Shown: positions 12,301 to 64,000, counted from the first letter of the stretch. The stretch: 64,000 nt of DNA from Tubulanus polymorphus (GCF_964204645.1 NC_134036.1:8546030-8610029); one strand, 5' to 3'. Notes: generated by a model not told the origin, from the sequence alone. Made by a program: numbers and translations.

Positions 12301-12762
12301 GGTCAAGATTAAAAAAGAACTGTAGCACTAGTAGCAAATTGAAGCAAAAGCTGATGGAGGAATGGACGGACGACGACAGATAATCACTCTAACCCATCAG
12401 CTCCACTGACCTCCGGTCACAGCCGAGCTAAAAATTACATGTACCATACAAATGGATTTCTCTCAACGAATTCATTTGATTGAATAAGAGTGTATTAGTA
12501 TTGACTTACTATCAGTTGGATCAAGTGATTCATAGTCCGAAGATTCAGGCTCAGTTAAATTAGATGAGCCAGAATCAGGAACATTTCCTTTTATTTCCGA
12601 CTGCCCACTGACGCTTTGAAAAACACCATCTTTGACCAGGTATAACATCGGTTCTTTTTGTTTCTCTCTTACAACTTTAATAGGCTTCATTTTTCCAGAT
12701 TTTACGATGGTTACCTCAGGATAATCTGTTTGCAATTCTTTAATAGTTCTTTTGCGAGGCAT
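6335..12762 (-). CDS. Multi-exon CxC-domain KDZ (Kyakuja-Dileera-Zisupton) transposase
   Basis: Manually spliced GT-AG exons: about 11679-11371 (CFIC..FRCDDC..CLEC..H..LPFHRLKQW), 10501-10390, 10181-9964 (LWPASPSQPTYAASFDFL), 9881-9762 (CLACP), 9599-9429 (SADANFGL), 9335-9196 (GVMGLACSRHE..GER), 8983-8866 (YDIAC), 8742-8656 (AIPLFHCYGHQANCQ), 8561-8381 (GLTDGETMERFWS). Helical C-terminal exons run on to 6335. Putative first exon 12762-12510. The exon 1/2 junction and some 3' exons were not resolved. Confidence 0.9.
10720..11020. mobile_element. Partial copy of the palindromic MITE seen at 22983-23331
   Basis: Shares CATCCTC..TTGC.AGGG, ACCCTGGCCG, TATTACATCGCCCA and CCACCAGTCTATATATCTAGCCAA with the 22983 element. 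Confidence 0.65.
11750..12434. mobile_element. HINE/Helentron-like non-autonomous element in a KDZ intron
   Basis: Starts ACTAGGGGGCACCATGCC, carries the 154-bp-family unit at about 11901, and ends in an imperfect AGCTC...GAGCTA hairpin plus A-run. Confidence 0.5.
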
Positions 12763-13610
12763 AATGGATAGACTGAAAAATAAGTGCTGGTAAAGGTTAG
12801 AAGTAATCAGATTGCATGTAGCCTTTCTGGTCTTTCGTTATATTAGTACACTAATAGGAAAGCACCAGTTCAAGAACTCAACGGGGGCCAGGATTAGTGC
12901 CTATTTTCCTCCCCTATTATAAGATGCGGTCCACCAGCTGAACCAGAGGCTCAGGAAACATGACCACTTGTCACAAAATTCAATGCCCCCTGTTGACCAT
13001 ATATAGAAACAAATGAGCTTGAAACTCACCACAGATAACTGGATTCCAGTGGTGCCCGAGGTGGAATGGTGTATTACATTGACTAGGCACCTGGTTTAGT
13101 GTGGCAGGGGTGCGCGCTGTGGCTGTGTAGCAATGCCAAAAGGTTTAACTCCCTGCCGAGGGAGGATTATTTTTTATTTACGATTTGATAGAACTGATTT
13201 AAGTGTAGGGTGCAGGGGCAGATCTAGGGGGGTCAATAGGGTGGCTAGGCACCCCCTCAAACGCCTTCAAAAAATTTTTTCGTGTAAATAGCCTATCTCT
13301 AAGAAAATAAGAATGTTAGCTGCCTCAGAATCAGAACTAACAGTAGCGTTGCGACATTATTGGATGTCACCGTATGCTACGAGCATTCATCGAGATGATC
13401 GCTCGTAGATACAAGTAATGACTGACAAAGGTGGCTATTTGAGGATATTCAAGCGGGAAGTGATCAAATCGAAGTGCTGACAGTGTACGCTGCTTAGCAG
13501 GAGAGAATTAACAAATCTCATTATATAAAAAATGCATCATAGGCCCATGGCTATTTGGTTGATAAACGTCAATCACCGGCTCAATACGTCCAGTGCGGGT
13601 GTAAAAATAA

Positions 13611-20700: not shown

Positions 20701-20900
20701 AGTTGAGATCACAGGCAGATATTGAGGTCTATGGCCCACACAAAACATCATAAATTGGTCAGGAAATAAAGTGTTTTGTGGTATAGATGACACGTTTGTA
20801 CGATTTTACACTGTAAATTTATCATTTTTCAGGACTTTCAGGACCTAAAATCAGCAATATTTTTGATACAAACTGAGAAAGTATCAAAACATTTGAGAAC
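17790..20900. repeat. Segmental duplication, copy A
   Basis: Colinear and highly similar to 46530-48568 plus 53552-54560. A more diverged partial copy lies at about 23930-25060. Confidence 0.92.
17830..17900 (+). ncRNA. Hammerhead ribozyme core motif (type I-like, probable Penelope-like-element relic)
   Basis: CTGATGA (17853-17859), then a perfect 7-bp stem II GGCTAAT/ATTAGCC, then GAAAC. Stems I and III are weak. Confidence 0.55.
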
Positions 20901-21020
20901 GCGTTAAATGTACAGTTTGTCCTACTCTCGTTTGCCTGATTTCCCCGGTGATGGGGAAGTCATATAATAAATTGTACGGGATTTATCCTCTTTTGATGAC
21001 GTATTTTTGTTTTCTCGCAG

Positions 21021-21148
21021 ATATCGACGATTGTTTGTTAGCGCCGTGCGGTGCTGAATCCGCTACCACGTGTACGGATAAACTGAACGATTACGAATGT
21101 AGCGCTTGTAACAGCGATGACGTGTTATACGAAAACAAGTGTCATAGT
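21021..21148 (+). CDS. Exon encoding a calcium-binding EGF-like domain; 3' end disrupted by an LTR-like insertion
   Basis: Polypyrimidine-CAG acceptor followed by DIDDCLLAPCGAESATTCTDKLNDYECSAC. Confidence 0.65.
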
Positions 21149-22525
21149 ACTGATCCGCAGCAAGATTCCGTAGTAACTAAAAATATTTGTAATGATGGTT
21201 TTTGTTTGCGTTGGTGGTTTCTTTATGGGTATCAGACAGCAAACGATGTGTGCAAGTTGTTGTTTGATGCTTTGATCTACCAGCGCTGACAATAAATCAG
21301 CCAGGGGTAAAAATAATTCTTCCTCGGTTCTTGTGCTGCGATATCTGGCAAACATTCAGAATTATTTTTAAACTTAAGGATAGACGGAACTGTAATTGGT
21401 TGGGTCGGAACGATGAGGTGCTTTGATAGTGTGGTTTGTGCAGGGATCTCGCTGTTACTTCTTGATACTCCCGACTACTTTCTATAAAAGGAAGAACCGG
21501 AAGTATAGGAAGACATGGTTGTTTTGCTTTATCCTGTATTATTATAGAGTTAGTTAAATTATAAATGAAAATTGGTATAATAAGTATAGAATGATTTTAG
21601 ATTTGATAATTAATTACATTGTATTTCTGAATCAAAAGTTTACTATTGTTGATTGGAAAAAGAAACGATGAGTTTGTTCCATAATTTAGGTGAAAACTAA
21701 GTTTTGAAAATATATCTAAATTAAGTATCCTGGATGTTAATTAAGGACAAGACCTTTATAATCGCTTAAGTTTTATTGAAGTTTAATTGTGGCAAATATC
21801 AATACTAGCTCTCTAAGGTTTCTGTTGGTGTACATGTCTGTTGGTAACTCGTAGAGAATAGCTGCTCTCTCAACGATGATGAGTAGGGAGTGAGTAAATC
21901 AAAGCGCGTTATGACAGGAGGGTTGGAAAGAAAAGTTACTTTGGCAAATCAGTTTCTCAAATAATTTTAGATTAGCGAATCATTAAGGCTAATTCTACAT
22001 GTCCAAAACCGTCATGACAGCTAGGTTGCTGCTCCTTGCCAAAAGTCGAACGGGAGAGTCGGCATTCTAGGAATGCCGATCTTTTCCATAAAAGAGGCCC
22101 GCAGTCTTGAGAAAGCAGACTTACCAGGGACGCTCGTTAAGATACTTGAGATTTGGGTGGAAATAACAGAATTAAGACGGGTTACCAACAGTAGTGTACA
22201 ATAGGAATTTGGAGTTAGGAATTGGACTGTGTACTATCTGGAGATATTACTATCATCAAGGTAAATAAAATCTATATTATTATTATTATATTCAATCAGA
22301 ATTTCGGCATTTTAGTTTAATTATTTGGGTTTGTGCACGGACACGTTCTCTCGCCAGGGACCGATCTTTACGTTTTTATATTCAACGATTAAGGAGAGGA
22401 TTGTGACCGGTGTATCAGTACGTATAACAACTATACAGCCATTTCTGCCGATTGAACCCTGCATTCCCGCTCATTTTCACTCGCAGGATTTCAGCTTAGA
22501 CGATGGTCCAGTTAAGAATATCACA
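21149..22525. mobile_element. Probable solo LTR; a related partial copy lies at about 26893-27410
   Basis: Both copies begin TGATCCGCAGC and share GAATAGCTG..TCTCTC..CGATGAT, ATTTTAGAT.AGCGAATCA and ATAAAAG.GGCCCG. This copy ends ATCACA. No TSD found. Confidence 0.4.
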
Positions 22526-35292: not shown

Positions 35293-38200
35293 TTATTCAA
35301 GAATAGTTTTTAGTCTACGTCGCGACCTCTTTTAATTCCACCTTTTCTGTCGGGCGCATTTTTTAGGTGGGTTGCGCAGACCTCGTCGAAATTAAATTCT
35401 GTACCAACAAACAATTTGAGTGCACTTTCTACAATAAAAAAAAGTTCAGTGAAAACAAAGCAATCAATATATCTTTACTTGAATACAATTAGAACCCATG
35501 CTAAAGAAACCAAGTGAAGCAAGCACCTTTGCTACCTAAACGTTACTTATTAGAATGCAAATGGTATGCATCAGGCAGTTCCAGCACATTTTGAGAATAT
35601 GATTGAAAGTAAATCAAATGGGTAGCTCGTCTGCAGTGGCATGATATTTTGAGTATTTTGTGTACCATAGTTTCAATGTAAACCGCGAAAAATGTGTGGA
35701 CATGACAGGCAGCATAAAAAGTTGCCAATATAAAGAAACACACCGATGTAACAATTGCCCAGATAATATCCCAATTGGCATATTTCTTCCATGGATGACT
35801 TTTAAATTGGGGTATTTGTACAAAAGGAATTTACCTAGATTAAGGGAATTATTCCCATATGTGTCGTTCATTTATTACGTACGCATTAGGGGAGGGGTAA
35901 GTGAAATTGTGTAATTGTAACGCTTAATGTATATGAAAAAAATGGCCGATTTTGCGTACAGAAGGGTTGAAAAATTCAAATTTTATGCGTACATAATAAA
36001 TGAATGATCCAATTTTTTAATAACAATTATATTACCTTTCAGAATGGCATATAACTTGAGGAGCGTAAAACCAAATTTCCCCCTCGTTCCATGCATGTTA
36101 AAATGCGACATGAGCTTGTTTGTGAGTAACCTAGAAAGATGAAAAAATAACAACATTTAATCAACAGTAAAAATGATTCGGTTATCAGTAGGCATGCAAC
36201 CTTTGCAAAGACCAGGTCACTGACAGGTTTCAATCCTCATTTTACAGCAATGAAGTATTTTCAGAATACTCGAGAAAAAAGTACTTCTTAATTTTGACTG
36301 TGCCTTGAAATAGATATTATGGTTTTAACAATGAAAATAATGATAAAAGTTCTAAAGGGATTGGCGTATAGGGCCCATCTACGGTCAAACTTTTTCATCA
36401 GCTTAATCGAGATTTCTATATCATTATTATAAGTCCACCTATACATAAATATAAAAGGTTTTAAAAAAATAGAAATAAAGGTTTTTAATTGTATGTACAT
36501 AAGTATAGGATCGCACTACTTTTTTTTAGTGATTTTAGGGTTACACGATTTTTGAGTCATATTAGGGAAAAATAGGGAAAGGTTTATGATGAGATTTTCT
36601 TTCAAAATTGCAGAATTAAATCATTTTATTATAGCTCTTGCATGTGTGTAGATTCTTACCTCTGCAAAGCCCTTCTTATGAAATCTGCAAAATGGGCACC
36701 GCCTATGTTCTCTAACTGCCCGAGCTGGAATGTGATTGAACAACATGTAAGCCTTAACTGTATGTAATTCTACACAAACCAACATATTTTTATTGAATTA
36801 TTCTGACTACTGAATGCCTCAACTTCTCTTAATTAGTAAAATCCAAATCACAAATAAGTTAAATGGTTCCTTTTTTAAATTAACCACGTTTTTCATCTTA
36901 AGCAAGGGAAAATTAGCATTGAAAAATCCATAGAGTTAACTATATTGCCTTGTTCGTCACTTACCAACTTCTCTTTTTCTGAACTTTCTTTTTCTAATTT
37001 GTCTTCAAATTCCTGCAGCTCTTCTATCGTGTCAACCTGTTCAATGGGTTCAACGGTTTCCCGATTTCGTCGACAAATCAGATCTTTGATTTCCATAAGG
37101 TTGTGAAGTACTTTCTTCTGAAATTCTGGAATAACAAAATGTACCTGAATTTAAACTATTTTTTTCCACAAAACTAAATACAGTAAACAGGAATAATGCC
37201 GCATTAAATATCACTAAATATTTAATTGACTGACAAATTAAACATCACTAAATATTTAATTGACTGACAAATGATTGTTGTGATATCTGTGTGCTGGCCA
37301 AAAATGCACACAGATCACACTACTACTCATCAGACCCCTAGACCAACAGTGCTTTGTTATATATAACCTTCCAATTATCTAGTGTGTTTCTCCCTGGATT
37401 CTTTTTAAATAACATCCTGTCTATTGTTGAGACCAATAATTAATCATACATCATTTGTTCAGGTAGATATTATTCTTAGCCTATTGTTCAAAACAACTGC
37501 ACTAAATCGGACTACAATTTTGGGGTTTCAGTCAATTATTTATCAATGACTTAATTTTTTTTTAAATTTGTATGTACTTACTCGCATCAGGAAGTGGGAA
37601 TGGATCAGTTGATCGTTGACTCGGCTCTATGCTGTCTTCTCGGAATTTACTGGAGGACATCGAAGGTGATTGCATTTGAGACAACTGCTCAGAGTCGTCA
37701 GCCTTTCTATTTTTCCAGTGTGTACTGAGCGGCACAGGCGATCGAATTTCACGCGACAACTTTTCGCGGTCGGCAACCATTCGATTTTTCACGGATGGTG
37801 TACTGAGCGACGTAGGCATTCGAATTTCACGCAACAACTGCTCGCGGGCATCACTTTTTCGATTTTTCCTGTGTGTACTGAGCAACTTAGGTGAACGTGA
37901 TCGAATTTCACGCAACCACTGCTCGCAGTCGTCAGCCTTTCGATTTTTCCAGGACTGCGTACTGAGGCAAGACGTAGGCGAAGGCGATCGAATTTCACTC
38001 GAAAACTGCTCGGACTCGTCGGCCTTTCGGTTTTTCCAGTGTGCACTGAGCGGCGAAGGCGATCGAATTTCACGCGAAAACTGCTCGGACTCGTCGGCCT
38101 TTCGGTTTTTCCAGTGTGCACTGAGCGGCGAAGGCGATCGAATTTCACGCGAAAACTGCTCGGACTCGTCGGCCTTTCGGTTTTTCCAGTGTGCACTGAG

Positions 38201-40985
38201 CGGCGAAGGCGATCGAATTTCACGCGAAAACTGCTCGGACTCGTCGGCCTTTCGGTTTTTCCAGTGTGCACTGAGCGGCGAAGGCGATCGAATTTCACGC
38301 GAAAACTGCTCGGACTCGTCGGTCTTTCGGTTTTTCACGGACGGTGTACTGAGCGACGAAGACGATCGAATATCACTCGAAAACTGCTCGGACTCGTCGA
38401 TCTTTCGGTTTTTCACGGACGGTGTACTGAGCGGCGAAGACGATCGAATATCACTCGAAAACTGCTCGGACTCGTCGGCCTTTCGGTTTTTCACGGACGG
38501 TGTACTGAGCGACGAAGACGATCGAATATCACTCGAAAACTGCTCGGACTCGTCGGTCTTTCGGTTTTTCACGGACGGTGTACTGAGCGGCGAAGACGAT
38601 CGAATATCACTCGAAAACTGCTCGGACTCGTCGGTCTTTCGGTTTTTCACGGACGGTGTACTGAGCGGCGAAGACGATCGAATATCACGCGAAAACTGCT
38701 CGGACTCGGCGGTCTTTCGGTTTTTCACGGACGGTGTACTGAGCAATGTAGATGAAAGTGATCGAATTTGACGTGACAAATGCTCGCGGGCATCAGGCAT
38801 TTGAATGAAACTACACTGCTTACGCAGCAACGGTGTGGCTGGTAATTTAAAGGCGGATACGGTTGGAGGTTGAGGTAAACCTATGTCCTCTGAAAGTAAA
38901 GTAAAAACGAAATATCATTCAGTACTTTATATATAGCTACAACCTAACCACAATTTTAACAAGCACTGCTACGCTCTCAAGTGATAAGGCACATGGGAGA
39001 CATGTCTGAAATCAGGGTCCAGGGACAACATGCACATTTGGTGAAATGCCCAACAATCTGATAATTTCATTATCAATGACCTATTATTCAGTATCTGTAA
39101 AACAATGTTTAAGATCAATAAAGTCAAAATTGAATTGCATTGAATTGCAATCATCGTAACAAATAGAGAGAAGTTTTACAATTCTGTCCGTCCCATACAA
39201 ACATCTCGCTATAGTAAACATTTCGGAGCATTTTAGACCAATGACAATCATATTCATAGAAAATCTTACCTTCAATGAGCAGAAATACCGTGTAAATACA
39301 CCTGTGAATAAACCAGGAAATGCGCGGTTGAATTGCGCGCACTGTGTCTCAGTGTACGGAGATGCATTCGGTACATCCACACTTAATTTTGAAAATGTTC
39401 CTAATAGGCTACCATATTTCTTGGATATATCCAAGAAACAATAGTTCAAAGGTCAAGCCACGTTAATTAGAGAGTTAGGTGCGAGTGGGACCCCTGCGTT
39501 TAGACAGGCCTGGGAGAAAATCTAGAAGTTTTTTCAGCGAAAATTATGTGAAAATGTATGAAATTTTATAGTACTAGCAGTCCGGGTCTATTTTGATTTC
39601 ACAGTAACGCGTGTATACGAAAAGATCGGCAATTTGCTTCAATTTTGGCATATTTTCGATTATTTCACAAAAACGCGAGTTCAAATTTATAAGAAATGTT
39701 TAGATCGTAAAATAGATACTATATGACACCACTGATGAAAAAATCAGATCTCAGGACCTTATAGATAAAAAGTGTGCCACCGTTTTACTGAAATTTTTCG
39801 CAATAGGCAAATGAATTGGAAGCATGACGTCATCAGCTAGTGATAGCAAAAGCGAACCATAGGTTCGCTAAAAATCAAATGTTATATTACTCAATCTTGA
39901 GACTGGATAACGCAATACTCACCGATCGCTTCAGCTGGTTCTTCATCGCCAGACGATGCACTACCTTCCTCACATGGATCTGAAGGTACAATTTTAATGG
40001 TTTTATGATATATATAGCCAATCCCATATAGTCCTAACCAACTCCATAATGCAGGAAAACTGCTATCTCTTAGATGTTTACTCTGTGACCATTGCAGGAT
40101 ATTGCGTGCAACTAAAGATGAAAATTTAAACTTTAAGTTGGCAGCTCTGAATTAATTGCGAAAATCATAGACCATGAACTATAAATTCCCCCAAATCTCT
40201 TTCTCCATGAGCCATTGAAAAGAAATTTTGGATTGTTGAATGAGAACCAGTATTATGAACATGAACTTCTTGGTGAAAAATTGGGTTTCGTTAACCGTCA
40301 ACATTTATAAGCTAAATTACCCGTATCTTCTTCCATTACATAGTCTTCGTAACAAATTTTCTTTCGTTTTCGACTTTCATCAGGTTCAGTGTCTGTATTT
40401 TCTTGACTATCGCAGAGCTGCCTGTTGGCTGAAACAGGTATCAAATATAAAATTAGAAAACAAGTTCTGAAACAGAAACTTAAGCATTTTTCAGAGCATG
40501 AGCAATATGGGGTATCATAAATTTTCCTATTATAGAAAAACAGTTCCTAATCGTATGAATTAAAAACTGAGCAGAACTACTAGTAGGATTCATCCAACTA
40601 CCTTTAAGTTGGGCAGTCACTAAGTTTATTTGATCAGGTTACAGTCCTACCACAAACTCTCCTGGATACAGAGATTAGTGCCGTGCTCAAAACACCATGA
40701 ATTCATTAACAAGCATTCAAACACTAGACTTTCCTACTGCAAGTTGAATCATTTCATTGGTATGTTTCAGAAATTAATATAATGTCAAAGTATCATACCG
40801 GATTTAACTTTTATCTTTATGATTTTGAATCTCCTCCATTTAAAATCGGGAACTGTGTGGTTCTCGAAATCCTCCTCTGCATTTATTGCAGGAGGCCATC
40901 TTAACATGTTTTCTTCCACCCAGCAGGCCGGCACCGTGCCCACCATTTCTTTCTTCCCTTCTAGCCAGACGGCACAAATCCAGAG
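35293..40985 (-). CDS. EnSpm ORF2, spliced DUF4806-like accessory protein with an expanded Ser/Pro/Arg repeat
   Basis: Exons at about 40985-40800 (AVWLEGKKEMVGTVPACWVEENMLRWPP..KWRRFKIIKIKVKS), 40428-40322, 39980-39923, 38889-37582, 37127-36965, 36725-36660 (GQLENIGG), 36130-36035 (LLTNKLMSHFNMHGTRGKFGF) and 35428-35293 (HLKNAPDRKGG). The start exon was not located. Confidence 0.75.
37670..38790 (-). repeat. Coding minisatellite of 78-bp and 75-bp units, about 15 copies including degenerate ones
   Basis: Period 78 (38341, 38419) encodes SSPLSTPSVKNRKTDESEQFSSDIRS; period 75 (38041, 38116) encodes SPSPLSAHWKNRKADESEQFSREIR. Confidence 0.95.
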
Positions 40986-42194: not shown

Positions 42195-44148
42195 CTGTAA
42201 TCCATGTAATAATGGAACAATCACATAACCTCCATCAGGTACTGGTAGGCATACTGCCTTGGATTTCAAATCTTTTTTTTTCGATGAGACCTCTCCTAAT
42301 CCCCTGCTCCAAATTAGCTATGAAGTAAATATTCACAATTCTTGAATCGCACGGCTGATCAAAGAAACTTTCCATCTGTCTAATCTTAATAACATTACAC
42401 ATACAAGTATCATGGCGAATCTCCTTGACAATAGCAAACTCAGAACTATTCAACAAAAATACACTATCTTTGTCATCATCAGATATCCTGGGCGATTGTC
42501 TTTTTTTCGTTCTGTATAAACATGCATTGTTCATTTCACTTTCCCGAAGCCTTTTTACAACTTGAACTAGTGGGGACTGGGATTTGCGTACAAGCCCTTT
42601 CAAAATCTGCAGAAAATTCTCGAAAGGGAATGCAGATATAGCATTAAGGGAGCAGCCAAAGTGTTCCACGTCTTCATGTAAATGAATTAATGTGTGAACG
42701 TTGTACGTACAGAAAGTGGTGCCATAAAACATTGGGCATTTTTTTACAAAATAATCCAGAAGCTGTTTAGCATATGGTAATAACTCATTCCTTTGAGCAT
42801 CGTCAGGATTCAACATGATAAAAAGAGGAACTGTTAAACAGAGAAAATGTTTATAATGGCCAGGTCTTAGCACGCCACGTAATGAGATTGGACCAGAATA
42901 TAGAACAAACTGACGCAACTCTGTGGCTTTCCATCGATCTAGCTCAGTTAGTCCACGTGGTTGTCTGGCAAAATCACTGGGAAATTTATTTTTGAATGAT
43001 TCCAAAACTAGAGAAACTTGTTCCACTTGTAAATTGGATAGTTTGCATATTCTGGGACCAGACTTTAAAAATGACAATATCCGCTTAACTACACCCTGAC
43101 ATATAAGATGCATGTAATCAAGACAGAATGTAGAGATACAACTGATACCATAATCAATTAATGGTGACCGCGCAGTTTGGTGAACATTATACTTATAGTC
43201 ACTAAATTTCTCATCGGTTCTTAATGTGTGTAAGCGCAAGCTATGATATACAACACGTCCATTCCAATGACCACGTATTTTACATCTTTCGCATCCATAG
43301 TAACCGTTGTGGCCAATTATACATTTCAAGAAAGATCGTGCTGGTGCATCACAAACTATGGCTTTTATATTGAATCTGAAGTTTTTCCCCGAGTACAGGA
43401 TACCAGATATTTTCAGGTTATTGAATTCTTCAAGAAAGTCATATAGGTATTCATGCACATCATTAGGTTTCGAATTCCCTAAGAACAATGCAATAATAAA
43501 AGGATTAAATTCTGCAAAATATCCAAGAATAGGCCAAAACTGGCTCTTGCTCGATTTGAACAGCGGTAGACCATCAACATTCACTTTTAATTCAATAATC
43601 TCATTTTCATTGACAAACTGTATATTATCAGCCAAACACTTGGTAACATTGGTTTCTATGCCTAAATACACATACTGTCCACCACACTTATGAAAAGATT
43701 CAACATTTCTAGGTCTTTTTAGTATTGTACGGCAATCTTTCGGTAAATCATGGCCATGTGCTTTAAGGATAGACAACAACTGATTCAAAGAATATTGTGT
43801 TGTCTTGTTTTCAACAGCCCACGTGGCCAGTTCATTTCGGAGAGCAATATCATTAGGCCCTTCATCATCATCACTGGAAGATAGGCCTAGGCTAAAATCC
43901 GGATCACTGCCCTCAGAAGTAGAAATATCAGAGTAATGAGCGACGGCTTCTCTTCCATTCTCTATTCGAATATCATCAGAAAGTAAAGTCTCTCGATCCA
44001 ATACAGAATCAGAAGAACTAGCTTGATATGATGACTCAGCGGAAGGTGAAGAAAACTGAATATTATCTTCCTCTAGCTGTAGTTCCTGTCTAACTTGTCC
44101 AGCTATATATCACCAACGATTACTGTGATTACTGTGATGAACAGACAT
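42195..44148 (-). pseudogene. EnSpm/CACTA transposase with two small lesions
   Basis: Motifs NVDGLPLFKSS..FWPIL, CDAPARSFLKC..GHNGYYGCERC, LDYMHL, WKATELRQF, YNVHTLIHL and SAFPFENFL. In-frame ATG at 44148 with TGA at codon 13. An extra A in the A9 run near 42275 displaces the KAVCLP..YVIVPLLH C-terminus. Confidence 0.92.
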
Positions 44149-53551: not shown

Positions 53552-55093
53552 GCTTTATTCGGGTTTTTTTTACCAGGGGCCTTTACCTTGGGGTATATTT
53601 AACTAGGGGATTTTTACTGAAAGGGACATTTACGGGGCGAGGTTTTACCCGATCACATCGATTATTGAATGACATGTTCGATAAGATCATGACAGAAACT
53701 GGTATCACTAGTACAATTTGATAATTTTCGCTATTCGGGTGGTTATGTGGATTATTGGCGATACCGTTGGTAACTGACTAGCTATTTGTATCACTGATCG
53801 GACTGTGAAAATATGGCTTTGACAAAACCACAACGAGAAATGAATCACACGCAATATTTAACTCGGAGACAAGCTTAACCATGGAATCAGTAACGTCTTT
53901 TTCAGTCCATGGCTATTGGAAAAATCAATGAGAAATACTGCCTCCGACTGCCTCCGATTTTTATGACGAAAATATATGAATGAATTCCGAACAGAATCAA
54001 ATCAGGTTGTTCTTGGTATTGTGTATACATTTCATTTAGTGGATATTTCAATTAATTCGTGTAATTAGGAAAAACTCGATCCAATAATGGGTTTTTCTTT
54101 CGGTTTTAAGTAATTTACAACTTTTACCAAATACGGACTACATGGTTTGACATTCAAACCAGTGATCGGCCTTACGATCGGCCTTTCGTAGAATCCCCCT
54201 GAAGGTCACAATTTTAGTAATTTGACCTTGGGAGGTTTAAACCTCCCGAATCCAATTAGCAAAGTATCGGTCCTCTTTTTCGGCGACAATAAAAGTCCCA
54301 TGCGCGTAACTTTCTATTGTGCGCCTGCCGCGTTTTGGGCACGAGTAGCTTACATAATCTCAATTGAAAGTTGAGATCACAGGCAGATATTGAGTTCTAT
54401 GGGCCACACATTACATCATAAATTGGTCAGCAAATAAAGTGTTTTGTGGTATAAATGACATGTTTGTACTATTTTACGCTGTAAATTTATCATTTTTCAG
54501 GACTTAAGGACCAAAAATCGACGATACAAACTGAGAAAGTATAAAAAAAATTGAGAACGCAGTACAAGTATATTTAGTACATTCGCATACCTGTCATTGT
54601 CATCGCAGTGGTGAACTAATAACTCAACTTTTTTACACAATACCTCGGCTGTATTCAGTGTACGACCGAAAAAAGTAATCTATTTGGGTCAGTCCTTAAC
54701 CGAAATTCAGAAATTATTCAGGTGCTATCGAGACATATGACATAATTTGCACAAGGCCCCAGTTCGACTTGATAAGTAGGAGTAATATGACTGCGGTACG
54801 AAACTCTGGCTCATTCGAAAATATAGCAACTCAGAACGAAGTAGAGCCGTCTCAGGGTGAGTTCAAATGATTCTATATATAGACTTGTTTGTTTTTTTTT
54901 AGTATAAGTTAATTACCGTTGTGAAATTATATACATTACAAAATGATTCGCCACCGCGCACGAATGCACATTTTAGGCGAAATTTACAAAAAGAACGAAA
55001 ACAAAATGAGTAATAGGAAATGTGTTGTTTCATACCAGAGGTCGAGAGGTCGAGACACCACTCATCACCACAAGTAATTTTTTTTCCTTATAA

Positions 55094-55420
55094 ATGGGAG
55101 ATAGAAAAGCATTCTTAGCAACAATAAATAACAGAATTAAACCAGCAAAAAAACAATTTGAAATAAAAAAGTTAGTTGATGTTACAAAAGAAATTGAACA
55201 TAAAATATTGAAATTAGAAAAGATAAAAACTAAATATGGAGAGAAAGTATCAGCGAATTTAAGCTACTGTAATGTTAGTACATCGCGAGAATTTAAAGTA
55301 TTTTTACCTGATAAATGGCCTTCATTGAGTACAGAGGAATTAAAAGATTTAGAAGGATTTAAAATAATCTATCATGGAAAAAATGAAGACGGTCATCATG
55401 ATTTAGAAATTGTTGATTAA
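55094..55420 (+). CDS. Hypothetical 108-aa Lys-rich protein, probably of the Polinton-like element
   Basis: Intact ORF preceded by the same TAATTTTTTTT-N-TAAATG start motif as the viral genes. Confidence 0.55.
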   Translation: MGDRKAFLATINNRIKPAKKQFEIKKLVDVTKEIEHKILKLEKIKTKYGEKVSANLSYCNVSTSREFKVFLPDKWPSLSTEELKDLEGFKIIYHGKNEDGHHDLEIVD

Positions 55421-57266
55421 ATAAAAAATAAAAATAATGAATATCTAGAATCCAAAATGACCTTAATCGTTTTACGAACAACTATAATCATGCCAGCCAA
55501 ACATGTTATTATAAGAGAGTAGTACTTCATTTGAATATTGATCGATCAAACAGGTGTTGCAATTCAACGTTGTTGTTATATTAGATAGCTAGCAGTTATA
55601 TAATAAGCACGTAATACATACAACACACACAGGTTACATTCTCTCTCTCGTGATTAAAAGGAATTCAGTTTTCTAGGTAAGTTTTAGCAAAACCACCCGA
55701 CTTGACTCGCAGAGTTTTTAGGGGATAAGCATCCCGTTATTCAGAGGCGCCACAAGATACCTATCCCCAAGCATTTCTACTTACACCCCTGTGACCCACA
55801 CCTCACCAATTCTCCTTCAATGGTTGACAGGAAACACATTATATTAAAGGCGCCTAAAGTCTATCCCAGTAGTTATGACCGCGGTGCATCAAAGAGACGG
55901 GATCCCTGTGGTTTCTATCACTCAGCCTTACGAGTAATTGAGGTCAAGCGACTACTGCATTCAAGAGTGAATAATATACCATCAACTGGCCATTCATTAA
56001 AGTATATAAAATTCTAATTTTCATAATTTTACAAAATCCTTTCTTGAATTTTGAATTTCATTTTGGGAATAATCATGTCATCTGGCAAATTCAATCTGAT
56101 TGATTTTGTACATCTATAAACTCTTCAGAGTGTGAGCATATATAATCTGGAATTATCTCATGAGTCGAGTGTTGTTGTTTTGCTTGAAACACCATCTAAA
56201 TATAATCTTTCAACTTGGAAATTGGTTTTGACACTACATAATGTAAACTCTGACTTTAGCATCCAGCGAAAATATTCACTCTTGAGTGCAACAAGACTTC
56301 AAAACTGAATTTTCATTGCTCATTACTTCATTTTCTTGGATTAAGTGTGGAAAAGTTTTGCTCTTTATTCACTCTTGCCTGTAACCATAGTAACAAGCAG
56401 CTGGGGTCCAGGGAGTCAGCGATGCTCATGGTGAGTTTGACCACTTTAAGCTGTCAGTATCAATTGAATTGTTGTTGATACTGGCTCTTTGAGAGTAAAA
56501 TGCCGCGGTCATAACCACTGGGATAGACTTTAATGCATTTCCTATCAACCCCTTACCCCCGAAAGGAGGATCGAAAGTCGAAACTGAAGGAGAACCACGG
56601 AGGGTGGACAAAGGTGCATTTTCGAAATGCCCCTGCAAGCCAAGCCCGGCGGCACTCCAGTGGTCGAATGAATTGCCTTATATACTTAGCTAAAACACCT
56701 AAGTAAATGTTGTTGGTGTTTACTAAAGAAATATGTGAAATTTGAAATTATAAATTATTCTGAATGAAAAGAATATAGGAATGAAAACTGATAAATGAAT
56801 TATGGATTTTTAACTTAATTATGTTATAATTTGTAATCAAATTAGTCATCAATTATCCATGTTAATTAATTAACAAATTCAAATTCAAATATTCATTTTA
56901 GCATCACACCCAGTGCTGCCATCTTTCAATTTAAGAAAAAACTAATAATAAGAAACGACTGTAATACAATATTCAAGTAAAAACTTCAAATTAAAAAACA
57001 AAATAAATTAATAAAAATAATGAATATCTAGAATCCGAAATGACTTATCTGGACAGTTCAATTGCTCCGCATAGATAGACAAAAGTAGTGAGATATTCAA
57101 TTAATTGGAAAAAATTAATTTTTTTGCTTTTTTTCTAAAATATTAATCCATTTTTTTATTGTCAATTTTGGAATTTCAGAAGTATTTTCATTTTTGATAG
57201 AAGTTGTTTCAGAATTATAAATATCATGAATTTTATTTGATTTCTTATACCAATTCTTATACCAAT

Positions 57267-57870
57267 TCAATTTGAGTTCTCGGTTTTTTCTTCACAGTTA
57301 ATTCCTTCACTTCTTCCACCTCGCTCATTTATTATAGAAAAATTTTTACTTTCAATATTTGAAAATGTTATAACTCCAGTTGATAATAATGTCATAAATC
57401 CGCCTAATTGAAATGATAAATATCCAATCCATTTATTTAATTCAGTCATAACTAAATAATCATTTTTTAAATCGGAATATAATCTATTTTCATCCTCAAT
57501 TGGTAGTATATAATTACATAATTTACTATAACCTTTTACTACATTTTCTGATATCGCGTCATTAATTCTAGCTGTTCTCGCGGTTTCATAAATCTTAAAT
57601 AATCTAATAATTTCATCTGATTTCATTGTATCTAATTCATTATAAGTTAAATTTTAACCGATAAAATTTTTACATTTTCCAGATGCTATTAATATTTCTA
57701 ATTGATGTTTATAATAAAGATAATATTCATAATTATTATTTATTGTAACATTATTTAAAGCACCATCATCTGGAGTTAATTTTGTTTCTGTTATTCCTAA
57801 ATCATCTAAAGTTTTTTCAATTGGAACATCACCATTTTTAGATTTTATTTTCTTTTCACCACCTCTTTAT
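57267..57870 (-). pseudogene. Disrupted hypothetical viral protein with a C-terminal hydrophobic segment
   Basis: The 119-aa ORF extends upstream through a stop and a frameshift (YKHQLEILIASGKCKNFIG*NLTYNELDTMKSDEIIRLFKIYE). Confidence 0.55.
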
Positions 57871-57894
57871 ATAACAAACAAATTAGTTGTGTTG

Positions 57895-58170
57895 TTGCAA
57901 CTAGAATTCAACTAGAATGTAACTATAATTCAACTAGATTAACAAGCTAATTGAAATATTGTTGTTTTTATTTATTTCTTGTTAAATCTAGTTGATTTTT
58001 GTTCCAACTACCAATAACTAGAATTCAACTAGAATGTAACTAAAAATATACTAGATTAACAAGCTAGTTAAAATATTGCTGAATTTTATTTGATTTTTGT
58101 TTCAAATACCAATAACTAGAATTCAACTAGAATGTAACTAAATATGTAACAGATTAACAAGCTAGTTGAA
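57895..58170. repeat. Three copies of a composite repeat (about 100-120 bp) built from AACTAGA subunits
   Basis: AACTAGAATTCAACTAGAATGTAACTA at about 57899, 58016 and 58114, each followed by AGATTAACAAGCTA. Confidence 0.85.
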
Positions 58171-58171
58171 T

Positions 58172-58780
58172 TTAAATAAATTCATATTTAAATGGGTGTT
58201 GTAATCTGAATAGTAATTTTGATCTTTTATTATTTTTCAATTTATCCATATATTCATTATGTAAATCATGTGGAATAATATCGTTTTCCTCAAGTGCATT
58301 TTTCATCGATTTTCTATCTTTATTGTAGAATAAAACTAGAAATCTAATGTTTTCTCTAAAGTCTTTAACAATTGAATTATATTTTTGATTTAAAACCCAA
58401 GTTCTTATCCCAAAATGTCTACCAGAAAAAGCTAAATAACATAACTCACTCTCTCTAATTTTTGAATCATGTAAATTTGTGCAATCATCTATAATGAATA
58501 ATGTATTTGATCCTTTATAAATATCTATTGCTATTTTAATATAATTATCTAAATTTTCTTTTACTGTTTTAGGATCTAATATAATAAATTTATTATTTCT
58601 AGTAATATTTCCATCATAAGTTTGATTAAATTCATATGTTGGACAAAATAATACTATATTATCAAAATAGTTTTCATAAACAGTTTCTAATAAATTTAAT
58701 ATAAAATAAGTTTTTCCACAATTTTTTACGCCAGAAATTAACATATTATGAGGCTCAAATATAAATAATTCCTTATTCAT
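58172..58780 (-). CDS. A32-like (FtsK-HerA) DNA packaging ATPase
   Basis: Walker A GVKNCGKT, Walker B LFIIDD, arginine-finger region SGRHFGI..LNQKY, and FRENI; ORF intact. Confidence 0.9.
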   Translation of the reverse strand: MNKELFIFEPHNMLISGVKNCGKTYFILNLLETVYENYFDNIVLFCPTYEFNQTYDGNITRNNKFIILDPKTVKENLDNYIKIAIDIYKGSNTLFIIDDCTNLHDSKIRESELCYLAFSGRHFGIRTWVLNQKYNSIVKDFRENIRFLVLFYNKDRKSMKNALEENDIIPHDLHNEYMDKLKNNKRSKLLFRLQHPFKYEFI

Positions 58781-59909
58781 TTATATATTTTTAATTTTAC
58801 TTGATAATATCCCTTCATTGAATTTATCTGGCCATCCAACCCATTTTACTAAAGAATATTTTTTTCTTTTAATGGTTTTTGTTTTCAATACTTTTTCAAT
58901 TTTATATTCTTGTTCTAGATTTTCAGTAGTTAAACTTAATTCTTCTTCGTAAAAGTAGCCATCAACTTCTTCACCATCTAAATCTTCTAATTTATAGACA
59001 TATGGTTTTGTTGTTATTACCTTTTTTATTTCATATATTTCCCTAGTAAAATTTCGATCGTATCCTTTGTCAAATATCTTTTTATACTAGAAATTCTAAC
59101 ATTTTGACCAACTTTAAATTTAGGTTCACCAAAATCATCTACAAGAAATGCTCCATATAAATTATTCCAAACAATTTCAGCATTTTCAGGTTTTCTAGCA
59201 TCAATAGGTTTCATTACAATAGAAGAATGATAAGAATTATTATATCCTTCTATCAATTTTGGTAAAACATCAATCCATTTAAAAGTATTATTTGCTGTAA
59301 AATATTTCCACATTCTTGTTCTTAATGTTCTATTAAATCGTTCAACAACTGCTGCTTTTTTATCCGATTTTGTTGAAAAATATTTGATATTATGATTATC
59401 TAAGAGTTCATGAACAAGTGAATTATCAAACTCTTTTCCATCATCAAATTGTATTTTTTCTGGTTTCAGTTTAACATCCGAAAGAAATTTTCTTAAAACA
59501 TGCGATGTTTGTACAGCATCTTATCTATAAAGTGGGAAACTCCATACATAACGACTAAAAATATCAATTATTTTCAATATCCACCAATATTCATCATAAT
59601 CTTTCTCAACATTTTTCATATCAATTAAATCTCCTTGCCACTGTTGATCTACATAACTAACCATAGTTTTACGAGTTTTATATTTTCTAACAATTTTTTT
59701 ATGTGTTGTATATGTTGGGTGTTCTAACATAAATTCATTTATATCTTTATATTTAACTAAATTTTTTGTGGGATTATCTTATCTAATTTATCTTGTTTTA
59801 CTTGACGCCATATATTTTTGGTAGAAGAATAAGCAACCGAACTCTCAGGGTTGTAATATAAATTTCTTAAATATTGTTCTTTAGTATAAGGAGTTTTTTT
59901 ACCGACCAT
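58781..59909 (-). pseudogene. Polinton-type rve (DDE) integrase with a C-terminal chromodomain, disrupted
   Basis: LYYNP, QWQGDLIDM, IDIFSRYVW, QFDDGKEF, VVERFNRT, YNNSYHSSI, FKVGQNVRIS, and chromo YKIEKVL..LVKWVGWPDKFN. Frameshifts near 59770 and 59085; stop at 59521. Confidence 0.9.
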
Positions 59910-59929
59910 TTAATTTTAACTTTATATTT

Positions 59930-60440
59930 CTAATATTGAGTATCTAATTGTGAATTTACAATATTTAATTGTGCGTCAGATATAATATAAATGTGCATTT
60001 TAGAATTTAAGCTTCCTTTTTTCTTTTTCATGAATAATTGTATTCCATCTTTAGTGTTCTGTAGTTTTTTCCCAGAACCATGTAATGAATTATCCTCTGT
60101 TGTTCTAAAATCTAACCATAATGCATATTTATTACCGGTATAATAATCAATTTGATTAATATTACAATTTTCAGATGATTTCACTTTTTCATTCATAAAA
60201 TGTTTTCTAATTTCTGGCCATTGATCTATCATTCTCATTCCTTGACAAAATATTTTATTTGCTATTCCTTCGATAGTTATTTCTACTTTTGTTATTTCAG
60301 GGTTATAATAATTATCTACCTTTATTGCGCCATTAGAATATGTTGCAATGGTAAAAAATATTAATATACCTTTAATAGATCTTCCTGGGAAGTTAATATT
60401 CTCATTAATTATTTCATCATTTGCATTAATAGTTCCAGTT
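59930..60440 (-). pseudogene. C-terminal part of a probable major capsid protein (5' part deleted)
   Basis: The frame is open upstream of the listed Met: IINENINFPGRSIKGILIFF..YNPEITKVEITIEG..QGMR..KYALWLDFRT..DNSLHGSG..IYIISDAQLNI. This resembles Polinton-like capsid C-termini from recall; no search was run. Confidence 0.6.
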
Positions 60441-61440
60441 AACTTTTAATCTATTAATATTATAATCATATGATTTTAATAATAATTTAATTTCTTCTTT
60501 TTGTAATTCTAAATTATCTTTTAAATTATTAATTTCTTTTTCTAAACGTAATTCATTTTGCCTATATTCCATTTCATCAATTACTTGACGATCAAGATCA
60601 GACTTTAATTGTTCTATTTCTTTATTTTTATCAGTTAATTCTTTTTCTAAAGTTCTAATTTTAATATCTCTTATACTTTTATTATGTGCAATTTTATCAG
60701 CTTCATTTCTTATACTAATAATTTCTCTAATTGCTTCATCAGAAAATATATTTAAATCTTCTAATTGTTGATCTGTTGCATCAATTAATCCATTCGGTAA
60801 AAGTTTTTCAATTGGAACTTTATTTGATTTAAGTTTACTAGTTTTGGAAGTTATATTCTGTTCAGAAGTTGTTTCTGTTTCTGATTTCTTTTTGATTATT
60901 TCAAATAATTCATTAATTCTTTGTTTAAATACGTCTATATCATTATCAGTTAATTCTTGTTTTATAACACCAGTTATAACATTACTATTACTAATTCTTT
61001 TAATTCTATCTGGATCTAAATCACTCAAAGTTGATTTTGTTAATATTTTATTTTTTATTATTTTTATAAGTGATATCAATATAGTAATCACCTTTCAAAT
61101 GATAATACCATTTACCATTATTTATAAATTTTAATTGATCTGCTAAAGGCCCAACGTCTTCATCATTTATGTTAAGTTTAGAATTTTCAATTATATGTTC
61201 TAATTTAGGTATTTTGTTTAAATTATCTAAATCTTGTTTTACTAAATATGGGTCTAAATTTTCAGGATTTAATTGTGATTCTGCATTTTTAATATAATCA
61301 GGTATATTTAAATTATTATTATGTCCTGGCTCATTACCGTCATTAAAACTTGTTCCACTAAAATCAGGTTGTTGTTCATCAGTTATGCCAGGTTCATCAA
61401 AATTATCCATTCCAATATCTTCTCCACCTTCTACATCCAT
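60426..61440 (-). pseudogene. Acidic N-terminus plus coiled-coil hypothetical protein, frameshifted near 61060 and truncated by a deletion
   Basis: Two overlapping ORFs (61048-61440 and 60426-61091) join across an A-rich run. Confidence 0.55.
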
Positions 61441-62779
61441 TTAAATAATAAAAAAATTTAAATTTAAAATATAATATTCCTCCGATTACAATTCCTATAC
61501 AAGTTAAAGCTAATTTAGTATTTTCATGGAATTTATTATCATTATCATTTTTAATTATATCATGTTGAATATTATCAGTTTTAATATTTTCTGATGTATT
61601 ATAATCCGGTTTAGAATCATTATTTAATTTAATATTCTTAGTTTTAGTTTCTGTTGATTGAATATGTTTTTTATTTTTTTCACCTTCCATTAATTTTGAA
61701 GCAGTAATAATCTTTTTATTTATATCATTCAATCCAAATGAATTATTTATTGTTGCAGTTTTAATTAGATTATTATAACCAATTATATTTCCCATCTTTA
61801 ATACTAAATCATTAGAAATTATTAATAGATTAGGACCTATACAATAATTTAATCTAATATGTGATTTATCTAAATAATTTTGATATCTTACAATGTTTTC
61901 TGGAATCGATCGATTTTTAACATTATGAATTGAATCTTCAAATAATACTTTGAATTGTTTCTGCGCATCAAATGAAGTGTTATCATTTCCAATTATTGGG
62001 GATCTTGTTTCAACTTGCGCACCTAAAATACATATCAAATAAGTTCTAATTGATTGATTTATTCTTTGTATGCCAGCTTTAGTAAAACCTTCACTATTTT
62101 CTAAAATGGAATTAACCCAACCATTATTGTTTTGTTGTTGTATATTATTATAATATTTAGGTAATTCATACCAATTTAGTGTTCTTATATCTGAATTTGT
62201 CATTATTTCCCAAATTCGTTAGTATATAATATTCCTAATCCACCCATTGTTCCAATTTTTGCTCTAAAATCCTTATTTGAATTAATATTAAATTCATTAC
62301 GTATTTTATAAAACTCAGAAAAATTAATATTATTATTCAATTCTTTAAAATATTTTGAACCTGGTAAAGGACATTCTAATTCATCTAATATTAATTTTAT
62401 TTGAAAATAAGTATGAAATCTAAAAAGTGATAAAATCAATGGTAAACTCGGTTTATTTAAATGATCATTCCAACTAATTCCACATCCTGTTGTTGCGCAA
62501 TAAACAGCAAAATTTAATTGGTTCTGCCAATACTTCATATTAGATTTTAATAACCATTGTTTTGCCTCATTTAAATTTTTGAAATTAATTTCATAAACAT
62601 TGAATATATTTTTCCATCTTTACATGAAAATTATTACTTTCAGTAACAGAAATATATAAATCAATTAATGAATTTAGAGCTTCATTTCTATATGAAATAT
62701 CTTTATTAAAATCTATTGCAGGAATATTATATTTAATTGATTTATTATATTGGAAAGCTTTTGGAAAACTATCTACCAT
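61403..62779 (-). pseudogene. Hypothetical viral protein split into three ORFs, with a C-terminal TM helix
   Basis: 62591-62779, 62203-62538 (YWQNQLNFAVYCATTGCGIS, FRFHTYFQ) and 61403-62203 (GFTKAGIQRINQSIRTY..ILGAQ) are consecutive frameshifted pieces; only the first has the start motif. Confidence 0.6.
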
Positions 62780-62795
62780 TTATATAATTAAAAAA

Positions 62796-63197
62796 TTAAT
62801 AATTTATTAATTCTTTGAATAATTTATCTTGTTCTTCAACTGTTATATGGCCATTTAAACTTATTATATAATCTAGTGTATTCTTTAATTTATTAATTTC
62901 TTTATTACTTTTTATATTTAATTTTGAACTTATACCAGTTAAAACACTTGACGATAATCCTAACACACCAATTGATACAGCTAAAGGTGTAAATGGTGAA
63001 ACTATTGCTAAAAATGTTATTACAGAACTAATTGTAACCGAACCACTTATAATCAAATAATATATAATTTTACTTTTTAAATATTTTTTCTTTTTTATCT
63101 TTAAGTCACTTTCAAATTCTAATATTTGTTTTTCTAAATATATTTTTAATTCAGTTTTATTTATATGATGAGGAATAATATAAATATTATCATCCAT
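62796..63197 (-). CDS. Small two-TM membrane protein flanked by coiled-coil-like segments
   Basis: Intact 133-aa ORF with a hydrophobic hairpin IIYYLIISGSVTISSVITFLAIV / LAVSIGVLGLSSSVLTGI. Confidence 0.7.
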   Translation of the reverse strand: MDDNIYIIPHHINKTELKIYLEKQILEFESDLKIKKKKYLKSKIIYYLIISGSVTISSVITFLAIVSPFTPLAVSIGVLGLSSSVLTGISSKLNIKSNKEINKLKNTLDYIISLNGHITVEEQDKLFKELINY

Positions 63198-63216
63198 TTA
63201 TTTAGCAAAAAAATTA
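63195..63216 (-). promoter_or_regulatory. Representative TAA-T(n)-N-TAAATG intergenic start motif (poxvirus late-promoter-like)
   Basis: Minus strand TAATTTTTTTGCTAAATAAATG; similar motifs precede the ATGs at 63878, 63639, 62779, 61440 and 55094. Confidence 0.65.
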
Positions 63217-63639
63217 CTAATTAGTAAACTTATAAGCAACAAATATAACAATAACTGTTCCACCTAAAATCCATATTATTTCATATTTCTGTTGTTCTTT
63301 ACTCGGGGTATAATAATCTGATAATTTTGGTTTGTATAGACGTAATTTTTCTTTATTGGTTACCGCGTTATATAAACTCATTGCATCATCAACTGATTGA
63401 AAATCTCTATGTGAAATCTTCTGATCATATAATTCCTTGTTAATATAATCCATATACTTTTGCCTCTTTTCTCTATATTCTTCTGCAGCTTTATTGTATT
63501 TCTCTAATGCTAAGTTATGCCTTTTTTGTTCTGTTAATGATCCATTTTTATCAATATGCTTAAATAAATAACCACCACCAGTAAATGCTAAAGCGTTAAC
63601 AATTGCTGATACTATAATAGTTATAACTGCAGAAGCCAT
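63217..63639 (-). CDS. Small membrane protein with N- and C-terminal TM segments
   Basis: Intact 140-aa ORF: MASAVITIIVSAIVNALAFTGGGYLF..EQKRHNLALEK..IIWILGGTVIVIFVAY. Confidence 0.75.
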   Translation of the reverse strand: MASAVITIIVSAIVNALAFTGGGYLFKHIDKNGSLTEQKRHNLALEKYNKAAEEYREKRQKYMDYINKELYDQKISHRDFQSVDDAMSLYNAVTNKEKLRLYKPKLSDYYTPSKEQQKYEIIWILGGTVIVIFVAYKFTN

Positions 63640-63663
63640 TTATTTAGTAAAATAATTACGCAT

Positions 63664-63878
63664 TTATATAGGAGGAATATATTTTTGTTTTTCCAAATAA
63701 TCAATAGTTAAATTAGATAAAGTAACTGCTAATGTTAATTTTCATTGATACCAAATCTATCAACATTAACACTTCCCATTTTAAATACTTTTTTTAATAC
63801 CGTTGAATAACCAACAGTTCCAACTGATAGTAATGCTCCATTATATAATCCAGTTATTATCCACTTATCATCACTCAT
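63664..63878 (-). pseudogene. Small hydrophobic protein of about 70 aa, frameshifted
   Basis: MSDDKWIITGLYNGALLSVGTVGYSTVLKKVFKMG, then a frameshift to LTLAVTLSNLTIDYLEKQKYIPPI*. Confidence 0.55.
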
Positions 63879-64000
63879 TTATTAATCAAAAAAATTACAA
63901 TCTTCAAAATATTTAGTTAACTTATTTATGATTAATTCAACATTTATTTCATTACTAGTTTCATTTGTATATATTTCAATTATTATTTTTTCAATATCTT

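Follow-up and report, generated by a model that had tools for sequence, protein, structure and literature searches.

In the late promoters of vaccinia and mpox viruses, TAAAT followed by G overlies the start codon, and a T-rich core is centred some 10 nt upstream (PMC11980589, PMC5294985, PMC4542343), and in vaccinia virus a T at the 10th nucleotide upstream is conserved (PMC11980589; similarly PMC5294985). In vaccinia virus, as in the virus-like elements (VLEs) of yeasts, polymerase slippage furnishes transcripts with poly(A) leaders (PMC6211774, PMC7163114). Here we describe the same TAAAT+G arrangement, with a T-rich run upstream, in a 64,000-nt stretch of the genome of the ribbon worm Tubulanus polymorphus (GCF_964204645.1, NC_134036.1:8546030-8610029; this whole stretch is called the window, and positions are counted from its first nucleotide), where it marks the genes of an integrated element of the Maverick/Polinton type. 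Unlike in vaccinia and mpox viruses, the signal, read here from sequence alone, sits on a small integrating element in which no RNA polymerase was detected, and it precedes nearly all genes instead of one temporal class.

The element can be compared with several described systems. With Mavericks/Polintons (Polintoviricetes, 'adintoviruses'; PMC8502044, PMC11131425, bioRxiv 10.64898/2026.06.19.733378) it shares an rve integrase with chromodomain, an A32 ATPase, a double jelly-roll capsid and the presence of many diverged copies. Virophages and their giant viruses share late promoter motifs, and mavirus and Sputnik likewise carry a start motif matching the late promoter of a large virus, with integration into the host genome in the case of mavirus; their helper, however, is a known mimivirid of protists, whereas the present element combines a pox-type motif with an animal host and a putative helper (PMC6428243). 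Occlusion bodies of entomopoxviruses harbour Polinton-like viruses (PLVs), which are also small and proposed to be poxvirus parasites (Barth et al. 2024, PMC11296320); those viruses were found physically with the occlusion bodies of insect poxviruses, whereas our element is likened to them by description only. The late initiator of African swine fever virus (ASFV), TATA (PMC7163114), is resembled by a TATA near the ATG in sister elements, whereas the window element has exact TAAATG. Both the ASFV initiator and the TAAAN of yeast VLEs lie at or just before the start codon and yield slippage-made leaders, and the yeast VLEs encode their own polymerase (PMC6211774). Literature searches covering titles and abstract openings, with subscription papers outside their scope, found no published promoter analysis of such elements, and the word 'promoter' is absent from the main text, supplements aside, of Barth 2024 (PMC11296320), Starrett 2021 (PMC8502044), Stephens 2024 (PMC11131425) and a 2026 PLV framework preprint (bioRxiv 10.64898/2026.06.19.733378); the main text of Barth 2024 contains no motif analysis either.

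A two-part signal at the start codons

The original prediction held that the genes of this element all begin with TAAATG, and the motif is indeed present at the eight starts it named (55094 on the plus strand; 63878, 63639, 63197, 62779, 61440, 59909 and 58780 on the minus strand), each of which is backed by alignment or synteny with L002, a largely intact relative. A ninth start, at 57328 (-) and absent from that prediction, carries the motif as well, matching the start of L002 gene 9951 base for base in alignment, and brings the intact starts with the motif to 9/9; at a tenth, near 57866 (-), the ATG has been lost while TAAA and the upstream T-run are kept. The complete arrangement of T-run, spacer and TAAATG is seen at 55075..55096 (+), where it ends in the ATG of 55094, and a T-run and spacer occupy 63879..63900 (-) upstream of the 63878 start. 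As a composite, AATT[TA]TTTT-N4-14-TAAATG has five matches in 64 kb, every one at a start named in the prediction.

Between 57,000 and 64,000, TAAATG accounts for 17/166 ATGs on the minus strand and 5/81 on the plus strand, and between 1 and 54,000 for 58/2048. When the antisense frames of the element are read from a stop to the next ATG, that ATG stands directly behind TAA in 5/71 cases, and in random sequence of 77–95% A+T (AT) the corresponding value is 7–11%; under these nulls, eight TAAATG starts out of eight have a probability of 5e-10 to 3e-8. The prediction had offered a control of its own, namely that ATGs arising as frameshift artefacts lack the motif. This control is invalid, because an in-frame TAA cannot precede an ATG inside an open frame and the five ATGs in question sit 5–69 codons inside open frames; valid controls are provided by ATGs that lie out of frame, by sister elements of matched AT content and by viral loci unrelated to the element.

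An alignment search with the ATPase retrieved 33 metagenomic loci (L-numbers), the best being L002, which spans 11.5 kb, encodes an ATPase 80% identical to that of the window and carries the same genes in largely the same order. The enrichment of TAAATG at starts over other ATGs, proposed earlier as a check, was assessed in these relatives and is pronounced: across homologous gene families in 14 related loci of 20–45% G+C (GC), 53/55 starts are TAAATG against 92/2067 other ATGs, and inclusion of the window gives 61/63. Sister elements with the same genes (L014–L018, L020–L022, L027–L029, L031 and L033) have TAAATG at 0/34 starts; TATA lies at most 12 nt from the ATG in 30/34 of their starts and in 166/1780 other ATGs. 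L021 and L034 were left out as near-duplicates. One TATA-type sister, L014, has the same GC content as L002 (20%) and lacks TAAATG; the motif is therefore not a product of AT content. The ATPase tree groups the window in a six-member, all-TAAATG clade (support 100/99); deeper branching is weak (4/24 inner branches supported), and the promoter label needs five changes against a shuffled mean of 8.8. Beyond these loci, IMG/VR scans with the window ATPase and capsid gave no close relative, a GTDB search was likewise negative for the ATPase and yielded two distant contigs for the capsid, and the phage collection gave no relative.

At the 61 TAAATG starts, T makes up 72–77% of bases 9–11 nt upstream of TAAAT, with G and C nearly absent there, and the 10th nucleotide upstream is T at 44/61 starts compared with 40/92 TAAATG sites away from starts (p=5e-4), the profile of the latter being flat. 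As a poxvirus control we used L054, a chordopoxvirus core region in which 13/13 scanned open reading frames (ORFs) match Pfam families, 11 of them poxvirus-named; the locus came from a motif scan, and the start selected by the pattern was dropped before counting. T occupies the 10th position at 8/9 starts in L054, 8/9 in the window, 38/55 in the relatives and 15/40 in other AT-rich viral loci. Over positions -20 to -4, the T profile correlates with that of L054 at r 0.60 for the window, 0.62 for all relatives and 0.72 for the GC-richer relatives, whereas the profile of the 40 TAAATG starts from other AT-rich viral loci is flat (r -0.07 to 0.07).

Divergent genes are separated by 4, 4, 6, 19, 27, 30 and 72 nt, and the closest of them meet as CATTTAAATG. 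The three pairs with gaps of 4, 4 and 6 nt have the form CAT-TTAA-ATG or CAT-TTATAA-ATG, in which a templated leader would have hardly any room. At 96% of starts, position -3 is T, which under the Kozak rule is unfavourable for initiation by host scanning. As regards transcript ends, the nuclear polyadenylation signal AATAAA is not depleted in the coding strands (139 observed, 144 expected), a comparison given no weight because the nuclear control ORFs had no power (2 vs 1.7), and TTTTTT is depleted (8 vs 31), but so are A-runs (149 vs 221), making this a hint only.

Further variation was seen among the relatives. At L002:565, L002:1333, L004:4001 and L006:4918, an A-rich core (AATAAAAA-like) replaces the T-run before TAAATG, and these genes are possibly a second temporal class. 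L026, L155 and L156 tend towards a third start dialect, TAAAA(G)ATG, which resembles poxvirus intermediate or VLE initiators, and the TATA-type L020 (49% GC) has a recurring AAATT-like element further upstream. Under a TAAATG start, L002 also encodes a deoxynucleoside kinase (L002:10340-10981, -; PF01712, E 1.7e-31), and relatives carry zinc-finger genes and weak HNH genes.

Candidate transcription machineries

The two-part signal is conserved, and nearly every gene has it fused to its start codon. The explanation we favour, at somewhat better than even odds, is that the T-run and TAAATG together form a late promoter that would be read in the cytoplasm by the late machinery of a pox-type helper. 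A late transcription complex of poxvirus type would recognize the signal in a cytoplasmic factory, and the helper would supply this complex, because no polymerase gene was detected in the element (compare mavirus and Sputnik). By analogy with vaccinia virus, transcription would start in the AAA of TAAAT and slippage of the polymerase would add a non-templated poly(A) leader, which would replace the 5' untranslated region and supply an A at position -3 relative to the AUG. Until a helper infects the cell, intact copies would be largely silent; on infection they would be expressed and packaged in the helper factory, as mavirus is with Cafeteria roenbergensis virus. Helper dependence of the element is likely on this analysis, and an antiviral benefit to the host is possible. 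A wider version of the same idea is put forward tentatively, with the balance leaning against it: Mavericks/Polintons of this family might be virophages of pox/asfar-class viruses whose promoter dialect records the helper, TAAATG with a T-run pointing to pox relatives and TATA to asfarvirus relatives.

A number of observations weigh against a pox-type helper. Among the matches listed in three IMG/VR motif scans there was no candidate invertebrate pox-like helper, and the scanned ORFs of the window, L002 and further relatives, including 75 of 168 listed ORFs, yielded no subunit of a poxvirus RNA polymerase. The pox relatives described in the egovirus preprint occur, in the part of that source available, in gut protists, and the main-text portions of an endogenous-virus survey name no pox-class element for ribbon worms. 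Polinton transcripts are reported from coral (PMC11131425) and cavefish (PMC8502044), both other groups, with no helper named in the available portions of these papers, and yeast cytoplasmic plasmids also use a TAAAN initiator (PMC6211774). Nearly all genes of the element carry the late signal, whereas poxviruses need only part of their genes late; the upstream T-run is weak at the tightest divergent pairs; and weak VLTF3- or TFIIB-like genes in some relatives allow a self-supplied factor. The comparisons themselves have limits: the poxvirus control is one 16-kb locus with 9–10 starts, profile positions depend on one another, the division of loci into a TAAATG and a TATA set was made once the motif had been seen, the TATA window was chosen afterwards, and L001, L023–L026, L030, L155 and L156, being mixed or other, were left out of both sets. 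Finally, TAAATG by itself is not pox-specific, as it heads 6/11 ORFs in L289 and 8/15 in L279, both non-pox large-virus loci.

These last two loci bear directly on the possibility that the signal is a viral late promoter read by a different cytoplasmically transcribing large DNA virus, iridovirus-like or of an uncultured lineage, which we regard as unlikely. About half of the ORF starts in each are TAAATG, as are 7/17 in L181, a locus that encodes TFIIB and has T-rich upstream DNA (a share of 41–55% over the three loci); L289, which carries MSV199/DUF3627 genes, is presumably iridovirus-like. Iridoviruses infect invertebrates, and the proposal has been made that their own polymerase acts during a late phase in the cytoplasm (PMC5294985). 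Yet the T profile of the element correlates with the starts of L289 and L279 at only r 0.15–0.26 (14 starts), against r 0.60–0.72 with the poxvirus locus, and the larger relatives reach 83–100% TAAATG, a level that none of 359 non-Polinton viral loci, among the matches listed, comes near. Slightly less probable still is an element autonomous in the nucleus, whose own VLTF3/TFIIB-like late factor would steer host RNA polymerase II (Pol II) to a virus-style initiator. The TATA-type L020 has a weak Pox_VLTF3 match (L020:6543-7052, +; E 6e-4, below cut-off) and the TAAATG-type L032 a TFIIB zinc-ribbon match (L032:1528-2406, -; E 0.005), with Pox_VLTF3 at E 0.07 in one homolog of the L032 protein, and VLTF3 is reported for some of the coral polintoviruses, a group with expressed core genes (PMC11131425). 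However, neither the window nor L002, over its 11.5 kb, had a recognizable VLTF3/TFIIB-like gene, no alignment was obtained between the L020 protein and that of L032, itself at most a candidate VLTF3, and the T at -3 and the 4-nt divergent gaps suit slippage initiation better than Pol II leaders.

Least credible, and in our judgement very improbable, is a translational or compositional origin of the motif, which would then reflect a compact AT-rich genome with stop–start coupling, an acceptor for trans-splicing or a stop that guards the ATG. Short gaps occur in L002 (0–20 nt at 6/12 junctions); as the original prediction had cautioned, the TAAATG of the ATPase at 58780 uses the integrase stop; and TAAATG heads about 8% of the ORFs in viral loci unrelated to the element (81/1020, with 189/2058 in a second count, both among the matches listed and with each locus chosen for one motif match). 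Stop–start coupling was nevertheless rejected: TAA ends an upstream frame of 40 or more codons at only 4/63 starts, the motif also heads divergent genes, and coupling gives no reason to expect a spaced T-run upstream. At two L002 junctions the order is stop-TAA-ATG, that is, an additional TAA stands behind the stop. Trans-splicing was rejected as well, AG occurring within 12 nt upstream at only 6/55 starts. Composition is countered by the persistence of the motif at 45% GC and its absence from the sister at 20% GC. Of the original interpretation, a Polinton-type element and a non-random, lineage-wide start signal are retained; the helper virus and the antiviral role are putative.

The integrated copy and its surroundings

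At 57 kb of the window, GC content declines from some 35% to 23%. The element is a decayed integrated copy of a Maverick/Polinton-type virus, with an A32 ATPase, an rve integrase and the remnant of a double jelly-roll capsid. Broken frames affect two small genes as well as those for the integrase, the coiled-coil protein and the 440-aa product, and the capsid gene is mostly deleted, with its last third left; this copy is too decayed to act as a virophage itself. To judge by the gene order in L002, the element probably runs on past the window edge.

The main block is read on the minus strand. From its left, it begins with the remnant of a small gene (57115..57347, left end approximate), the homolog of L002 gene 9951 identified by alignment, in which the TAAATG start at 57328 is intact, and a broken conserved gene (57267..57890), aligned to L002 gene 9410, whose start near 57866 has decayed. 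Three imperfect 89-nt direct repeats, found by repeat search, lie in the intergenic gap at 57867..58170. The A32-type packaging ATPase (58172..58780, 202 aa) is an open frame matching Pox_A32 above cut-off (E 1e-12) and is 80% identical to the L002 ATPase. It is followed by the rve integrase with a C-terminal chromodomain (58781..59909, TAAATG start 59909), which lies in several broken frames recognized by tblastn and by weak rve and Chromo matches in pieces, the L002 homolog giving E 1.5e-10 for rve and E 1.2e-6 for Chromo. The C-terminal third of the major capsid protein (59930..60445) is 67–75% identical to the L002, L004 and L006 capsids, its N-terminal part and start being deleted. Next come the broken coiled-coil gene (60426..61440, TAAATG start 61440), aligned to L002 gene 4328, and a conserved gene of about 440 aa in three frames (61403..62779, TAAATG start 62779), with 64–84% identity to L002 gene 2996. 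Three small genes follow: a predicted membrane protein of 133 aa (62796..63197, TAAATG start 63197), whose L002 homolog has a weak SLATT-like match; a conserved protein of 140 aa with hydrophobic ends (63217..63639, TAAATG start 63639), 77% identical to L002 gene 2014; and a frameshifted small hydrophobic gene (63664..63878, TAAATG start 63878) aligned to L002 gene 1733.

Two segments to the left are inverted relative to this block. The gene at 55094..55420 (+) encodes 108 aa of unknown function with 74% identity over 102 aa to L002 gene 125, and in L002 the counterpart lies upstream in the same direction; the window gene could belong to a long terminal repeat or reflect a rearrangement. A non-coding segment at 57013..57097 (+) matches the L002 intergenic region 2433-2517 (blastn, 81% over 86 nt). 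Between them, a 44-nt direct repeat (55419-55461 and 57001-57044) flanks a 1.5-kb insert that holds a 30-nt inverted repeat pair (55855-55884 and 56503-56532) and is probably a nested small mobile element.

The 415-aa capsid of L002 was modelled with a predicted local distance difference test score (pLDDT) of 91.6 from an 82-sequence alignment, compared with 34 from a single sequence. In Foldseek, this predicted double jelly-roll structure resembled iridovirus and PBCV-1 (a chlorovirus) capsids best (E ~1e-16), with the mavirus capsid ranked under them, a ranking that is not diagnostic of a virophage clade. No penton gene was found in the window. A possible gene for the minor capsid (penton) protein is L002 gene 565, which is similar to DUF5901 and unnamed viral clusters. 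Compared with Mavericks/Polintons, the protein-primed family B polymerase (pPolB), for which group 2 may have a substitute replicase, the protease and the termini are not seen in the window, L002, L004 or L006, all of which are incomplete. PF03175 (pPolB) pieces adjoin the ATPase in the more distant L024; the scanned ORFs of the incomplete loci gave no match to a cysteine maturation protease, which is typical of group 1; and no pair of terminal inverted repeats was found within 50–64 kb of the window, where the element leaves its edge. In genomic reads from a run labelled as the same species, 26,658 reads out of 1,934 Mb covered 30/30 bins of the element, only 551 of them at least 99% alike and most 90–99% alike, figures that, with no single-copy control, do not imply a copy number. 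Because most covering reads are 90–99% alike, the data indicate a diverged multi-copy family.

Elsewhere in the window, KDZ transposase and CxC1/CxC2 remnants at 8376-12837 (-) belong to a Kyakuja-Dileera-Zisupton transposon, and a 624-aa open frame at 42235-44109 (-), with no Pfam match, is presumably a DNA transposase. A tandem repeat array at 37562-38914 gives rise to long open frames on both strands, and a cysteine-rich segment at 20897-21289 (+), without a Pfam match at E 0.01, resembles an EGF-like exon of a host gene.

Start signals and helper dependence in animal Polintons

These results describe an animal Maverick/Polinton lineage with start signals of the poxvirus late type, beside sister lineages with TATA-type starts that resemble the ASFV late initiator. 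There is almost no direct evidence on whether animal Mavericks/Polintons live autonomously in the nucleus as viruses or parasitize larger ones, and a precise two-part promoter of pox type at nearly every gene makes the helper question experimentally testable. A pox-type helper as proposed here predicts pox-related viruses in invertebrate groups where our searches found none, and the gene-start motif offers a possible way of matching endogenous elements to helper groups. If promoter dialects do record helpers, integrated elements would be signs of pox-like viruses still to be discovered in ribbon worms and other invertebrates, and a change of promoter would mark a change of helper.

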